From Pseudomonas phage sp. 30-2, in the sequence record LC727697.1: a DNA stretch of 64,000 bases; one strand, written 5' to 3'. The notes beneath the pieces were generated by a model. The model had not been told where the DNA came from. It saw nothing but the letters and a program-made list of their open reading frames with translations, and did no database searches. This document shows, piece by piece, positions 37,605 through 48,027 of the stretch. The translations under genes were made by a program, and so were the position numbers. Each line of letters starts with the position of its first letter. Position 1 is the stretch's first letter.

Positions 37605-38216
37605 TTAGCCATTCTCTTCTCTTACTTTTTTTGCAATCACTTTAAACAATCCTGGATTTACTTTAAGTGCTTGAGGAATTATATTATGTCGAATTTGATT
37701 TCTATTAAAATTAGTGTCTCGGTTACTAGGATCTTCTAACCATTGTACACCATTACTTTTCGCATATTTTTTAAATTCGTTTTTTGTAGTAAGCATAAAC
37801 GGTCGGATGACATTTTTTTTCCGATACGGAATGATACGAGGCGAACCGTGCATACTATAAAACAACCACGTCTCTACGTTGTCGTCTAGTGTATGTGCAG
37901 TCATGATTTCTAATTCATGAGAGTGCAGAAATTTATATCGTTCGTTTCGCCAATGTTCTTCCCAACTGCAACCTTTTGGTTTTTTTGTGTTAATGCAGTA
38001 TACATGGCAATTTATTTTATTGTCGCTACAATAATCTCTCACAAATTGCTCTGCTTTGATATCATACTCCGATCCGTGGTTTACATGAAAGACATCGAAG
38101 TTATTTTGTGGATATTTCTTTAAGAAGGACAATGCAACCATAGAATCAATACCGCCCGAAACAGCGATACCAAATTTCTGTCCATAATATGCAATGGGTT
38201 TTACTAACTTAATCAA
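37605..38216 (-). CDS. tilS: tRNA(Ile)-lysidine synthetase (TilS) N-terminal catalytic PP-loop domain protein
   Basis: PP-loop SGGIDS. FHVNHG matches TilS HVxHGLR. AHTLDDNVETWLF and IRPFML...QWLEDPSNRDTNFNRNQIRHNIIP match TilS blocks (E. coli ...WIEDESNQDDSYDRNFLR...). Confidence 0.75.
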   Translation of the reverse strand: MIKLVKPIAYYGQKFGIAVSGGIDSMVALSFLKKYPQNNFDVFHVNHGSEYDIKAEQFVRDYCSDNKINCHVYCINTKKPKGCSWEEHWRNERYKFLHSHELEIMTAHTLDDNVETWLFYSMHGSPRIIPYRKKNVIRPFMLTTKNEFKKYAKSNGVQWLEDPSNRDTNFNRNQIRHNIIPQALKVNPGLFKVIAKKVREENG

Positions 38217-38218
38217 AC

Positions 38219-38518
38219 CTAATATCCTTCCTTCATAACTAATCCAAGTACATAAGAAAAATTACACGATTCTAAACCAGTTCTTAAACTTTTTCTATAT
38301 ATATGATATGTAGTTAAGGTATCATCAGTAGTAACTGACAAGAATACCATATTGCTCCAGATATATATACATTTATAGTTCAACGATATGCGTTGTAACG
38401 CTAGTATGCTGTACATGTTTTTATGCACTGTATTGTTAGCTGTATTAGCGTTATACATGCGTTTGCACGTTATTGCAAACTTGCGTATAGCATAATGCAA
38501 ACGTGCAAAATAACGCAT
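38219..38518 (-). CDS. hypothetical protein (99 aa)
   Basis: ORF. Confidence 0.4.
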   Translation of the reverse strand: MRYFARLHYAIRKFAITCKRMYNANTANNTVHKNMYSILALQRISLNYKCIYIWSNMVFLSVTTDDTLTTYHIYRKSLRTGLESCNFSYVLGLVMKEGY

Positions 38519-38521
38519 TTT

Positions 38522-38818
38522 TTAAATTCCTCTTATTTTATTAATTTCCCGCTCAACGGATGTCATAGCTCTACTAAAGGAAATATAAATGTCAGTGTCG
38601 TATAACCTCCATACAACAAATCTATATCTAACTAGAAATTTTATATATGTATACTTAACAGATATAAAAGATATATAAAAAATAGAATTAACTTTAATAA
38701 ATCTAGTTTCATTATTGATAAATGGGTATTCCTTGCCATAAATTTCGCACAAAAATGCCCCTTCGGGATTATCACCTACATAATACAATATCGGTTTCAT
38801 TTTAATTATATTTGCCAT
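38522..38818 (-). CDS. hypothetical protein (98 aa)
   Basis: ORF. Confidence 0.4.
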   Translation of the reverse strand: MANIIKMKPILYYVGDNPEGAFLCEIYGKEYPFINNETRFIKVNSIFYISFISVKYTYIKFLVRYRFVVWRLYDTDIYISFSRAMTSVEREINKIRGI

Positions 38819-38992
38819 TCAGGAAAGACACCCATACATCCGTCTTGAGATACGTACAAATACCTACCATACTTATCTGACTTTGTAACGTATACCCATG
38901 CCTTTTTAATGTTTAATCCGAAAATATAAAAAGTTATGGTTGTAGTATTTGCACAAATTGAATAGTTTAGTATTAAACTCATACTATACCTC

Positions 38993-39214
38993 TTACCAAT
39001 ACTTTTTTCTTCGTTTATTCTTCGGTAACAAATGTTCCCCGGATAATTTTTTTATCATTTGCCGTTGCTGCTCTTGTGCAGTTTGTTTACAAGACTTAGA
39101 ACAATATAGTCCCCAACCTCTTTTAACATCGGCAATTCTTACTTCGAATACATTATTACATTCTATATTATTGCATGTTATTTTAGTTTTCTTTCCCCTA
39201 GGCGTTGTTGACAT
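38993..39214 (-). CDS. small basic zinc-ribbon protein (73 aa)
   Basis: CNNIECNN ... CSKSC cysteine pairs. Lys/Arg-rich. Confidence 0.45.
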   Translation of the reverse strand: MSTTPRGKKTKITCNNIECNNVFEVRIADVKRGWGLYCSKSCKQTAQEQQRQMIKKLSGEHLLPKNKRRKKYW

Positions 39215-39303
39215 TTAATTACTCGCAACAATACACTGTGTATTAGAATGCACAGTGTATATTATAGATAGTTGAATGCATGACTTACTTTGTTTCTTAC
39301 TAT

Positions 39304-39332
39304 AAAAAAAGGGCACAATGTGCCCTTTTTTT
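39304..39332. terminator. hairpin aaaaaaagggcac-aa-tgtgcccttttttt, bidirectional
   Basis: Perfect stem with A and T runs on both sides. Confidence 0.6.
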
Positions 39333-39546
39333 ATATTTTACTTCTTGCCAGTGGAAGAAGTAATAATTTCTTTACCGCAAACAGTGCAACGATAGCCCTT
39401 AGTAAACACGTTATGCACACGATTACCTTTGCCGTACACACTGTCCTGGAAATCATGTGCGCATTTGCACGATTTGATATTATCCACGTTTACCTCTGCT
39501 AGTTAATGTGTTGAGTGTTTAGTATACTGTTTTATAACAACGAAAT

Positions 39547-39768
39547 CTAGCATTTTTTTAAATTCTTATAACTGGTCCAGCCTAAGCCCCCTATTTCATG
39601 CGAAATATAAGTTGTATAATCATAATTACCTATACTCATCGATCTTGTATCATAAATCATACGTCTATACAAAACTATCCCTTTTTCTCCCCGGACCCAT
39701 ATACATGTATATATGGTACTTGGTTCTATGCATATTTGGCGTGCATTATAAGACAGTTTTAGGATCAT
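39547..39768 (-). CDS. hypothetical protein (73 aa)
   Basis: ORF. Confidence 0.35.
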   Translation of the reverse strand: MILKLSYNARQICIEPSTIYTCIWVRGEKGIVLYRRMIYDTRSMSIGNYDYTTYISHEIGGLGWTSYKNLKKC

Positions 39769-39934
39769 ATTTAGTTTTTACCTTAGCAAAAATAAATCCA
39801 AAATCATTTACAAATGATATAATGTAAACTGTATTACCTTTTATGTCTTTTTGTACATGTTCTACTATATGTAATTTTATAGAATTATACGATAATCCTA
39901 TAATAGAGGTATTGAAATTTGGATTATATGACAT
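39746..39934 (-). CDS. hypothetical protein (62 aa)
   Basis: ORF. Confidence 0.35.
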   Translation of the reverse strand: MSYNPNFNTSIIGLSYNSIKLHIVEHVQKDIKGNTVYIISFVNDFGFIFAKVKTKYDPKTVL

Positions 39935-40056
39935 ATTAGAATCCTTCTTATATGCAAATATTTATTGCTTAGATTCTTAATATATTATATCTATTAATAC
40001 GTTATAATGTAATTCAGAGACATTCAGGTTATATTTGTTTTCTAAATATAATCTCA

Positions 40057-40302
40057 CTAAGTTTGTTTAGTGTTATTATCTTTTTTAGATTTATTTTCAT
40101 TTCTTTCTTCTATACAAAACGATAATAGGTTTATAACAGTTGGTAGTAAGCAACATGTAGCTAAATTAGAAACAATGTCAATTCTTATTAAACTATATAT
40201 TTTATTAAAAATGGAAATAAAAAAATTAGAATATTTAATAGAAACAACGATTGTACTATTTCTAACTACTCTAGATAATTTACATAATAATGATAGATTC
40301 AT
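40057..40302 (-). CDS. small membrane protein (81 aa)
   Basis: Hydrophobic core. Lys-rich C-terminus. Confidence 0.4.
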   Translation of the reverse strand: MNLSLLCKLSRVVRNSTIVVSIKYSNFFISIFNKIYSLIRIDIVSNLATCCLLPTVINLLSFCIEERNENKSKKDNNTKQT

Positions 40303-47299: not shown

Positions 47300-47326
47300 G
47301 GAACATACCATAATATGTTCCTTTTG
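47300..47326 (-). terminator. hairpin ggaacatacc-ataa-tatgttcc within the tRNA cluster (processing or terminator element)
   Basis: 8-bp stem, one GU-type mismatch. Confidence 0.4.
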
Positions 47327-47334
47327 TAGGAGTT

Positions 47335-47419
47335 TGGTGCCCGGTGCCAGACTCGAACTGGCACGACTTTCGTCGGGAGATTTTAAGTCTCCTGTGTCTA
47401 CCGATTTCACCAACCGGGC
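47335..47419 (-). tRNA. tRNA-Leu (anticodon UAA), long variable arm, CCA encoded
   Basis: Acceptor gcccggt/accgggc. Loop cuUAAaa. Confidence 0.7.
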
Positions 47420-47468
47420 ATATTCATTCATTATATAGTTTAAGTATAGTTTGATTTGTATATAAAAA

Positions 47469-47545
47469 TTGGTGGGACTTACTGGATTCGAACCAGTGAC
47501 CTAGCGATTATGAGTCGCGCGCTCTAACCAACTGAGCTAAAGTCC
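47469..47545 (-). tRNA. CAU-anticodon tRNA, copy a, whose body resembles tRNA-Ile2 (lysidine tRNA)
   Basis: Anticodon arm gcgactcataatcgct and D-arm tagctcagttggttagagc match the E. coli ileX sequence as recalled. Acceptor gggactt/aagtccc. Confidence 0.65.
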
Positions 47546-47615
47546 CGTTTGAAACATTATATGAATATTTTATTTAGACTATTGTATCTCTTTAGATACA
47601 AATGTTATTTAAAAT

Positions 47616-47691
47616 TGGTGCCGACTGTGGGATTCGAACTCACGACCTACTGATTACAAGTCAGTTGCTCTACCAGCTGAGCTAAGACGGC
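47616..47691 (-). tRNA. tRNA-Thr (anticodon UGU)
   Basis: Loop cuUGUaa. Acceptor gccgtct/agtcggc with one U-U mismatch. Confidence 0.65.
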
Positions 47692-47717
47692 ATATTGAAT
47701 ATACAACAAAGTGTAAT

Positions 47718-47793
47718 TGGCTGGCTAGGTAGGACTCGAACCTACGACCCAATGATTAACAGTCATTTGCTCTACCGACTGAGCTACTAGCCA
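47718..47793 (-). tRNA. tRNA-Asn (anticodon GUU)
   Basis: Acceptor tggctag/ctagcca. Loop cuGUUaa. Confidence 0.7.
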
Positions 47794-47843
47794 TTTAATT
47801 TTAGAATAGTTTCCTATCTTGTTAAGTATTTATATCTTTTGTT

Positions 47844-47928
47844 TGGTACCCGAGACCGGACTCGAACCGGTACGCTGCGAAGCGGGAGATTTTAAGTCTC
47901 CTGTGTCTACCAATTTCACCACTCGGGC
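47844..47928 (-). tRNA. tRNA-Leu (anticodon UAA), second copy with a different variable arm and acceptor
   Basis: Acceptor gcccgag/ctcgggt. Same D and anticodon arms as 47335-47419. Confidence 0.65.
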
Positions 47929-47950
47929 TAAAAGCACAACATCTTAAAAT

Positions 47951-48027
47951 TGGTCCCTCGAACTGGATTCGAACCAGTGACCTAGCGATTATGAGTCGCG
48001 CGCTCTAACCAACTGAGCTACCGAGGG
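47951..48027 (-). tRNA. CAU-anticodon tRNA, copy b, identical to 47469-47545 except for the acceptor stem (ccctcgg/tcgaggg)
   Basis: D-arm, anticodon arm, variable loop and T-arm are base-for-base identical to copy a. Confidence 0.65.

Follow-up and report, generated by a model that had tools for sequence, protein, structure and literature searches.

How could a lysidine synthetase without either of the known tRNA-recognition domains serve a bacteriophage, and on which tRNAs would it act? tRNAIle-lysidine synthetase (TilS) is regarded as a bacteria-specific and essential enzyme, whose extra domains explain the choice of tRNAIle2 among the tRNAs with a CAU anticodon. The window analyzed here, a stretch of 64,000 nucleotides from Pseudomonas phage sp. 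30-2 (record LC727697.1), encodes a TilS of only 203 residues together with three CAU tRNAs located 7.1-9.7 kb upstream, two of which (tRNAs A and B) carry one and the same body on different acceptor stems. It is considered likely that tRNA B and this mini-TilS work together in decoding AUA and so reinforce a weak host system, whereas the balance leans only slightly toward the whole explanation, a mini-TilS kit for AUA decoding that includes tRNA A as a second tRNAIle2. The genes concerned are as follows, and all features under discussion are on the minus strand.

37605-38216, minus strand: tilS, encoding the 203-residue catalytic (N-terminal, PP-loop) domain of tRNAIle-lysidine synthetase, without CTD1 or CTD2.
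47951-48027, minus strand: tRNA A (CAU), first gene of the tRNA operon, with acceptor stem CCCUCGG/UCGAGGG, A73, and CCA.
47470-47546, minus strand: tRNA B (CAU), with acceptor stem GGGACUU/AAGUCCC, A73, and encoded CCA, and with G3:C70 and C5:G68.
45339-45415, minus strand: tRNA C (CAU), initiator-like, with C1xA72.

The open reading frame (ORF) of tilS starts with a TTG codon that follows the stop codon of the upstream ORF by 2 nt and a Shine-Dalgarno sequence, AAGGAAGGA, by 8-9 nt, and this start is backed by a conserved MIK(L) N terminus among homologues. A reading of the letters alone, without database searches (hereafter the sequence-only reading), had recognized a TilS catalytic domain lacking the C-terminal tRNA-binding domains in this product, from motif blocks that include SGGIDS and HVNHG; the product has SGGIDS at residues 20-25, HVNHG, and EDPSN...RNQIRH. 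Profile searches bear out the first part of that claim, with the NCBIfam model TIGR02432 (lysidine_TilS_N) scoring 131.4 bits against a cut-off of 93.6 and PF01171 scoring 126 bits (E = 1.7e-36) against a cut-off of 27. The possibility that the ORF would score better as another PP-loop enzyme was also checked; the matches to the TtcA, TtuA, MnmA, and GMP-synthase models fall short of those to the TilS models by orders of magnitude, and identities as QueC, MnmA, TtcA, TtuA, or PAPS reductase were ruled out, as all score far below TilS. The AlphaFold (AF2) model of the protein (pLDDT, the predicted local distance difference test, 93.9) has Aquifex TilS as its top Foldseek matches (2e21, 1wy5, and 2e89; TMq 0.80-0.84, root mean squared deviation 2.3-3.1), with E. 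coli MesJ at a TMq of 0.79 and the TilS structures ranking above TtuA.

The second part of the claim, the missing C-terminal domains, is likewise confirmed, as alignments to three solved TilS structures stop at the end of the catalytic domain (residues 26-227 of 317 in Aquifex, 22-219 of 464 in Geobacillus, and 16-200 of 433 in E. coli), and the protein ends ~15 residues past the NPGL motif. The C-terminal tRNA-recognition domains (CTD1 of types I and II, CTD2 of type I) are absent from the 203-residue product, and the six ORFs flanking tilS, to which the scan was confined, gave no Pfam match to a split or neighboring C-terminal TilS domain. By its sequence and its modeled fold, the ORF is a complete TilS catalytic domain and nothing more.

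The demand that such an enzyme could meet is apparent from the codon usage of the window. Over an 11-kb stretch around tilS and the tRNAs, the identity to ten jumbo phages that infect Pseudomonas aeruginosa and belong to the PA5oct/MIJ3 group (Arenbergviridae, Wroclawvirus) is 97-98%, identifying the source of the window, on this similarity, as a PA5oct/MIJ3-like (Wroclawvirus) jumbo phage of P. aeruginosa. The window has a GC content of 32%, compared with ~67% for the host (PMC12514573). Among the 60 window ORFs of at least 100 codons, AUA accounts for 46.7 per 1000 codons and 51% of the Ile codons, in agreement with the sequence-only reading of an AUA-rich genome, with AUG at 23.3 and UUA at 31.9 per 1000. 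AUA stands at 0.9 per 1000 in P. aeruginosa and is missing from its highly expressed genes (PMC12514573), so that the main Ile codon of the phage is ~50 times as frequent as in the host. The host enzyme, PaTilS, is moreover slow, with a kobs/KM of 0.3 µM-1 min-1 compared with 5.0 µM-1 min-1 for E. coli TilS (PMC12514573). After AUA, UUA is the next most host-limiting codon.

AUA is unevenly distributed within the window. Its share of the Ile codons is 0.22-0.35 in minus-strand ORFs of positions 1-16000 and 0.51-0.62 elsewhere, and AUA is absent altogether from several ORFs with 8-11 Ile codons (18824-19528, 12053-12487, and 2674-3321 among them). Such AUA-poor ORFs may be genes translated before AUA capacity builds, or genes of other origin. 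In tilS itself only 2 of the 15 Ile codons are AUA, which would fit an early gene, but this was dropped as support because several other ORFs are equally low or lower.

The mini-TilS of the window is not an isolated truncation. Catalytic-domain-only TilS proteins of ~200 residues are, judged by sequence comparison, a large conserved family present in viral contigs and in at least one bacterium of the candidate phyla radiation (CPR). The best 120 of 735 database clusters are all 179-253 residues long and 43-56% identical to the query, and clustering at 50% identity leaves 148 representatives at E <= 1e-30, nearly all of ~200 residues; at least 544 IMG/VR contigs, of up to 350 kb, encode a relative. 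In a 26-member alignment the PP-loop, HxLDDxxE, RP, DxSN, RNxIR, and NPG motifs are invariant, and all 26 members end soon after NPGLxKVxxKK. One member lies among housekeeping genes in a CPR (Spechtbacterales) genome, with an Ile2-type tRNA(CAU) starting GGGCCUG 56 nt downstream (locus L351); within the 10.9 kb of that genome that were fetched and searched, it is the TilS gene present. No description of a catalytic-domain-only TilS family was found in the literature searched, and the papers on plastid and Plasmodium TilS contain no discussion of short forms.

A further relative, of 253 residues, was observed in a 428-kb giant-virus-like contig (GCA_002581825.1, contig BBPE01000624.1, 10001-10891; L006), where an Ile2-type tRNA(CAU) lies 53 nt past the called gene end and 191 nt past the end of the protein match. 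Its neighbors are split RF-1/PCRF ORFs, an N6/N4 methyltransferase, and an HNH nuclease, and the contig looks like giant-virus DNA within a cellular assembly.

The CAU tRNAs found beside short tilS genes point to their substrate. In 83 fetched loci other than that of the window, each containing a short tilS with 10 kb on either side, tRNAs were located with ARAGORN. A CAU tRNA was found within 10 kb of tilS in 45 of the 83 loci and at no more than 300 nt in 31, always on the same strand in the ARAGORN listing. CAU tRNAs make up 34 of the 54 tRNAs within 300 nt of tilS, compared with 52 of all 380 tRNAs in those loci. The 31 distinct CAU tRNAs within 500 nt of a short tilS have acceptor stems that are mostly GGGCC, GGACC, or GGAAC, and 27 of them have a purine-pyrimidine pair at 3:70 (R3:Y70); G3 or A3 marks tRNAIle, while tRNAMet and tRNAfMet have C3:G70 (Silva et al. 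2006). Weak or mismatched 27:43 pairs are also frequent in the tilS-adjacent tRNAs. This synteny is strong contextual evidence that short TilS proteins act on tRNAIle2. Two loci (L011, 5353-6375, and L012, 9002-10549) repeat the local design of the window, with tRNA-Arg(UCU), two tRNA-Leu(UAA), and two CAU tRNAs followed directly by a short tilS, although the bodies of their paired CAU tRNAs differ and both are R3. In another IMG/VR locus (L026), a CAU tRNA with a C1-G72 pair (CGGCCCC) lies 20 nt from a short tilS. No tRNA was found within 3 kb of tilS in the uncultured phage LR745206 (635 kb), whose TilS is 42% identical.

Two side observations concern the same loci. In six IMG/VR loci from large viral contigs (L009, L021, L025, L026, L038, and L040), a tmRNA gene is found a few kb or less from the pair of short tilS and tRNA(CAU), which suggests a recurrent cluster of translation-rescue and decoding genes. 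L028 and L029 have, at 12460-12533 and 1.9 kb away from the short tilS, a tRNA with a CUA (amber-reading) anticodon, which may act as a suppressor in a phage with a recoded stop codon.

The sequence-only reading had the phage supplying the enzyme for AUA decoding as well as its substrate, and this is well supported by the sequence and fold of TilS, the ~50-fold AUA excess, and the close CAU linkage in 31 of the 83 loci. As to the substrates in the window, ARAGORN located all three of the CAU tRNAs named in that reading, with tRNA B at 47470-47546 in place of 47469-47545, an error of one position. Their scores with the Rfam tRNA model are 72.6 (B), 66.3 (A), and 56.9 bits (C).

tRNAs A and B are identical at all 58 of positions 8-65 and differ in six of the seven acceptor pairs, so the description of the two as having identical D, anticodon, and T arms under different acceptor stems was accurate. 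The acceptor stem of B consists of G1-C72, G2-C71, G3-C70, A4-U69, C5-G68, U6-A67, and U7-A66, and that of A of C1-G72, C2-G71, C3-G70, U4-A69, C5-G68, G6-C67, and G7.U66; pairs 1-4 are exact inversions of each other. By our own calculation, all six changed pairs among the 21 stem pairs would fall in the acceptor stem by chance with a probability of 7/54264 (~1e-4), which points either to selection keeping the stems different or to gene conversion that homogenized the interior with the stems protected. The adjacent Leu(UAA) tRNAs are only 82% identical, with differences in acceptor stem, variable arm, and T stem alike, and the spacers show no relatedness, which argues from the sequences that the CAU pair is not a recent tandem duplication.

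The common body is of tRNAIle2 type. Positions 28-42, the anticodon stem-loop, are identical to those of E. coli ileX; positions 8-43 are identical to those of a tRNA of Yersinia phage YeP1 whose acceptor, GGCCCUU, is of the Ile2 type of E. coli; and the best match to the body in 5,426 E. coli genomes is an Stx-prophage gene annotated tRNA-Ile by PGAP. It is on these three matches that the body is assigned to tRNAIle2. The sequence-only reading had matched the whole body to E. coli tRNAIle2, and this holds for the anticodon arm but was softened for the body as a whole, which is 88% identical to E. coli tRNAIle2 and 81% identical to E. coli tRNAMet. Classification of A and B by overall similarity to labeled tRNAs of eight species was tried and gave no decision, the ranges for Ile2 (74-88%) and Met (72-81%) overlapping. 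YeP1 (L352, MK733259.1, 36457-36530) is a T7-sized Yersinia phage in which the CAU tRNA is annotated Met, and the shared segment suggests, at the level of sequence, that a module of D and anticodon arms moves between very different phages. In a scan of viral sequences with an Ile2-type anticodon-arm pattern, the exact body of the window was present in no contig among the matches listed, which were mostly enterobacterial prophage ileZ genes.

Both A and B have the CAU anticodon in a CUCAUAA loop, A73, an elongator-type 1:72 pair, and a C.U mismatch at 27:43. At 5:68 both have C:G; 4:69 is A:U in B and U:A in A, and neither has C4:G69, which like C5:G68 is common in tRNAIle2 and a determinant for E. 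coli TilS. At the 3:70 discriminator of Silva et al. (2006), B is G3:C70 and A is C3:G70, a pair also found in E. coli and Pasteurellaceae tRNAIle2. With its CAU anticodon and A73, C3:G70 amounts to a tRNAMet trait that A has and B has not, but the C1-G72 and C2-G71 of A are unlike the six labeled tRNAMet. The P. aeruginosa tRNAIle2 starts GGGCCUA and the tRNAMet GGCUACA (PMC12514573 supplement), and B shares G1-G3 and C5 with the host tRNAIle2. By these features B is identified as an orthodox tRNAIle2.

The third CAU tRNA has the C1xA72 mismatch that had earlier been read as initiator-like, followed by G2-C71 and C3-G70 in a CGCAGGG/CCCUGCA acceptor stem. Its anticodon stem, AAAGG/CCUUU, contains A29G30G31/C39C40U41 and so meets the pattern R29G30G31/Y39C40Y41. 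The D stem has G11:C24 in place of the A11:U24 that is found in 100% of bacterial tRNAfMet (Silva et al. 2006), with the purine-pyrimidine orientation kept, and tRNA C is therefore called initiator-like only.

To place the stem of tRNA A, CAU tRNAs starting with CCC were searched for in one genome per bacterial species, and the same scan was run on viral contigs. The bacterial scan returned at least 120 loci (L109-L228), which among the matches listed are mostly from Pasteurellaceae, with CCCCCCU on an ileX-like body, and Alcaligenaceae, with CCCCCUG and the anticodon stem of P. aeruginosa tRNAIle2. With such bodies and anticodon stems, these genes are identified as native tRNAIle2 genes with C1-G72, C2-G71, and C3-G70; no discussion of native tRNAIle2 with C1-G72/C2-G71 was found in the literature searched. 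Several CPR lineages, again among the matches listed, have CAU tRNAs with CCCGGGG. The viral scan returned 22 loci, including ileX-like bodies in which only 1:72 and 2:71 are flipped. Pairs 1-6 of the acceptor stem of A are those of Streptomyces-phage CAU tRNAs (e.g. Ibantik) and were otherwise not seen among the matches listed. These CCCUCG tRNAs are annotated tRNA-Met and have a different, GC-rich body with C27-G43. Ibantik uses AUA at 1.7 and AUG at 21 per 1000 codons, which is not decisive for Ile2 or Met identity of its CCCUCGG tRNA.

Beyond sequence, fold, synteny, and codon counts, we infer each step of the proposed mechanism. Host RNA polymerase would transcribe the CAU tRNAs and tilS early, and the mini-TilS would adenylate C34 and add lysine to form lysidine, which could be processed on to ava2C in Pseudomonas. 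The modification would switch the tRNAs from MetRS to IleRS and from AUG to AUA, and the phage kit would supplement a slow host TilS that serves a codon barely used by the host. As the D, anticodon, and T arms of A are those of B, and are all that a catalytic-domain-only enzyme could plausibly touch, A would be lysidinylated too and act as a second tRNAIle2 gene. The two tRNAIle2 genes would then parallel the two tRNA-Leu(UAA) genes for UUA. The inverted pairs 1-4 of A would change its handling by acceptor-reading host proteins, with the type I TilS and MetRS of the host as evident candidates, and an acceptor-blind phage TilS would make the rewritten stem tolerable. With Burkholderia TilS, inversion of 3:70 or 4:69 nearly abolishes activity and deletion of CTD2 removes the discrimination at 3:70 (PMC11947777), and PaMetRS prefers tRNAMet 80-fold through elements outside the anticodon. 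From these data, B would probably be the better substrate of the two for host type I TilS, and A might be the better one for MetRS.

Several observations weigh against this account. To our knowledge, activity has been demonstrated for no catalytic-domain-only TilS. In the window tilS is 9.3-9.7 kb away from tRNAs A and B and not adjacent to them. The host tRNAMet and tRNAfMet share the CUCAUAA loop, and the mini-TilS would need to spare both. The 88% and 81% body identities given above separate Ile2 from Met poorly, and R3, absent from tRNA A, is lacking in only 4 of the 31 different CAU tRNAs that lie 500 nt or less from a short tilS. Deletion of CTD2 alone already leaves Burkholderia TilS inefficient (PMC11947777). 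Finally, a fully replaced stem on the same body indicates that A and B are not simply redundant copies, as gene conversion should then have homogenized the stems too.

The main competing explanation for tRNA A is that it is an elongator tRNAMet derived from a tRNAIle2 copy by replacement of the acceptor stem, completing a CAU triad of fMet-like C, Met A, and Ile2 B, with the acceptor stem alone deciding both C34 lysidinylation and the charging synthetase. The idea that the acceptor swap separates a Met from an Ile2 identity was already part of the sequence-only reading, and the stems go some way with it: B has G3:C70, A has C3:G70 and U4:A69 in common with the tRNAMet of P. aeruginosa and E. 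coli, C3:G70 is near-universal in tRNAMet and tRNAfMet, and in the labeled set R3 is found in 7 of 8 Ile2 and C3 in 5 of 6 Met. The near-inactivity of Burkholderia TilS after G3:C70 to C3:G70 exchange or 4:69 inversion, the 80-fold preference of PaMetRS, and the confinement of the changes to the acceptor stem, which implies a functional difference of the stems, point the same way. The Streptomyces-phage tRNAs with the same pairs 1-6 do so too, being annotated tRNA-Met and having a Met-like C27-G43, but "tRNA-Met" is the default label for any CAU anticodon in phage records. Against the swap idea, the phage TilS is without the acceptor-reading CTD2, the anticodon arm is identical on A and B, and native C1C2C3 stems occur in tRNAIle2, bacterial CCC-start CAU tRNAs being overwhelmingly Ile2-type among the matches listed. 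Native tRNAMet has G1-C72 and G2-C71, so inversion of these pairs would be unnecessary for a tRNAMet, and A retains the Ile-like C5:G68. AUG is moreover an ordinary codon (23 per 1000), for which an added tRNAMet has no obvious value, whereas the demand for AUA is extreme. A Met identity of A is accordingly judged to be on the unlikely side.

A different view of the same stem takes A and B both as Ile2 and the stem of A as a countermeasure: one AUA decoder would escape factors of the host or of a competitor that recognize acceptor stems, for instance a toxin or nuclease directed at the acceptor, the slow host TilS, which might sequester the tRNA, or MetRS, which might mischarge it. Exact inversion of pairs 1-4 would keep helix stability while altering every groove contact, the CCCUCG stem recurs in unrelated Streptomyces phages with other CCC stems in further viral contigs, and A is unchanged in PA5oct. 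The recurrence is tempered by the search having required CCC, with a match at stem positions 4-7 in one of ~8 families expected by chance at ~3% (our own estimate); no acceptor-reading factor was identified in this analysis and no defense context was seen in the window, and the countermeasure is considered improbable. It is more improbable still that the ORF is not a working lysidine synthetase but a remnant, a PP-loop enzyme acting on some other tRNA, or an interferer with host TilS, in which case the CAU tRNAs would rely on host TilS or all be tRNAMet. There is no biochemical precedent for a TilS without CTD1, every TilS class published so far contains one or more additional domains (PMC11947777), the full-length TilS model NF007942 gives only 77.6 bits against a cut-off of 606, and PHROGs contains no family that matches the 203-residue protein. 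Set against this are the size of the family and its invariant catalytic motifs, the far lower scores of the TtcA, TtuA, MnmA, and QueC-type models, the short tilS beside tRNAIle2 in the 10.9-kb CPR stretch, the tight CAU linkage in viruses, and a gene that is 99.5% conserved across 10 phage isolates.

For tRNA A, the assignment as a second tRNAIle2, whose rewritten stem is tolerated by a stem-ignoring phage enzyme and alters its handling by acceptor-reading host proteins, therefore stands between evenly balanced and slightly favored. The C1-G72 tRNA beside a short tilS in L026, the design of L011 and L012, the native C1C2C3 stems, and the body identical to that of B are points for it, as is the benefit of extra AUA, but not of extra AUG, capacity. 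A broader reading, tentative and rather doubtful as a whole, is that catalytic-domain-only TilS constitutes a third, mostly viral architectural class, which tells tRNAIle2 from tRNAMet and tRNAfMet without either known recognition domain and which, being unable to read the acceptor stem, leaves the stem free to evolve. The twin tRNAs would in that case be a natural experiment, with one body exposed to the acceptor-reading enzymes of the host in B and hidden from them or re-assigned in A; in the extreme form of this reading, seven acceptor base pairs alone would switch between Met and Ile identity in vivo.

The CAU tRNAs belong to a cluster of 12 tRNAs found by ARAGORN, all on the minus strand, of which the non-CAU members are mostly readers of A- or U-ending codons. 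The remaining tRNAs and the putative control elements are as follows.

47844-47928, minus strand: tRNA-Leu(UAA), copy 1, directly after tRNA A.
47718-47793, minus strand: tRNA-Asn(GUU), between the two CAU-Leu pairs.
47616-47691, minus strand: tRNA-Thr(UGU), between the two CAU-Leu pairs.
47335-47419, minus strand: tRNA-Leu(UAA), copy 2, directly after tRNA B.
46311-46387, minus strand: tRNA-Arg(UCU), rest of the cluster.
45253-45329, minus strand: tRNA-Pro(UGG), rest of the cluster.
45170-45243, minus strand: tRNA-Gly(UCC), rest of the cluster.
43895-43984, minus strand: tRNA-Ser(UGA), rest of the cluster.
43800-43889, minus strand: tRNA-Ser(GCU), rest of the cluster.
48055-48117 and 48134-48196, minus strand: 63-nt direct repeat upstream of tRNA A, two copies 97% identical and 79 nt apart.
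48172-48144 and 48093-48065, minus strand: promoter-like sites TTGCAA-17 nt-TATAAT, one per copy of the 63-nt repeat.
46439-46467, minus strand: promoter-like site TTGACC-17 nt-TATAAT, upstream of tRNA-Arg.
44418-44390, minus strand: promoter-like site with 12/12 consensus, upstream of an ORF and the two tRNA-Ser genes.
47296-47325, minus strand: terminator-like hairpin and T run right after the second tRNA-Leu, closing a six-tRNA operon in the order A-Leu-Asn-Thr-B-Leu.

The best sigma-70-like sites of the region lie directly upstream of tRNA groups, and the 63-nt repeat looks, from its sequence, like a duplicated strong early promoter; since shuffled sequence yields at least as many promoter-like sites, it is only where they lie that is suggestive. 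In PA5oct the tilS/tRNA region lies in a terminal repeat of 39 kb, many genes of which show high early transcription (Lood et al. 2020, PMC7318152), and that phage depends on host RNA polymerase (PMC7318152). Despite 108 differences between the two phages in this region, PA5oct has 11 of the 12 tRNAs, A, B, and C among them, in unaltered form.

Neither the gene nor its name is new to the literature, and for the AUA rationale the chloroviruses provide a precedent. New here are the recognition that TilS proteins of this minimal architecture form a class of their own and keep a tRNA(CAU) partner in viruses and CPR alike, the move of at least one "tRNA-Met" to tRNAIle2, which corrects the public annotation of the three CAU tRNAs as Met, and the description of twin tRNAs with an inverted acceptor stem set beside natural C1-G72 tRNAIle2 genes. 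A TilS of 200 residues in hundreds of viral contigs and a CPR locus, usually beside a tRNA, raises the question of the minimal recognition code for lysidinylation. It would also explain how half of the isoleucines of a phage with 32% GC can be encoded as AUA despite a host with a slow TilS and hardly any AUA codons. With one body on two stems, A and B are ready-made substrates for studying recognition by host TilS, phage TilS, MetRS, and IleRS.

The closest known counterparts are MIJ3 gp263 and PA5oct gp37 (EST35_0433), which are the same gene in the same phage group, with a protein 99.5% identical and annotated tRNA(Ile)-lysidine synthetase; the Callisto and PAC2 phages carry the same TilS annotation, and a TilS of 349 residues is annotated in Ralstonia phage RsoM2USA. 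MIJ3 gp263 was reported as a TilS "not reported in phages", its function left open and a role in host viability suggested (Imam et al. 2019, PMC6892783), and AUA is not mentioned in that paper. The MIJ3 and PA5oct genome papers and GenBank list the three CAU tRNAs as tRNA-Met for AUG, and the absence of the C-terminal domains, the tRNA link, and the twin anatomy are undescribed there. Bacterial TilS proteins of type I (E. coli, P. aeruginosa, and Geobacillus) consist of the N-terminal domain, CTD1, and CTD2, and those of type II (Aquifex, Helicobacter, and Mycobacterium) of the N-terminal domain and CTD1; they share the catalytic fold and motifs, and presumably the chemistry on C34, with the phage protein, which has neither CTD1 nor CTD2. 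Chlorovirus TilS is also viral and very early transcribed, and was proposed to aid an AT-richer virus in reading AUA, which is 12-13 times commoner there than in the GC-rich host (Duncan et al. 2020, PMC7589089). It differs in serving a eukaryotic algal host, and the paper has the enzyme acting on tRNAMet, without an analysis of its domains or of a partner tRNA (PMC7589089).

On the tRNA side, ileZ of Stx prophages is a phage-borne AUA reader with CAU in a GCGACUCAUAAUCGC anticodon arm, 87% identical to B and annotated tRNA-Ile by PGAP. It keeps the E. coli TilS determinants C4:G69 and C5:G68 and uses host TilS, whereas A and B lack C4:G69 and would be served by the phage's own enzyme. The tilS-trnI(CAU) modules of plastids (PMC13494906) and of CPR (L351) likewise hold enzyme gene and tRNA substrate together; the phage pair is 9-10 kb apart and has two candidate substrates with different acceptor stems. 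The native Pasteurellaceae and Alcaligenaceae tRNAIle2 come nearest to A in combining an Ile2-type anticodon arm with an inverted top of the acceptor stem, but they keep C4:G69 and C5:G68, whereas tRNA A has U4:A69.

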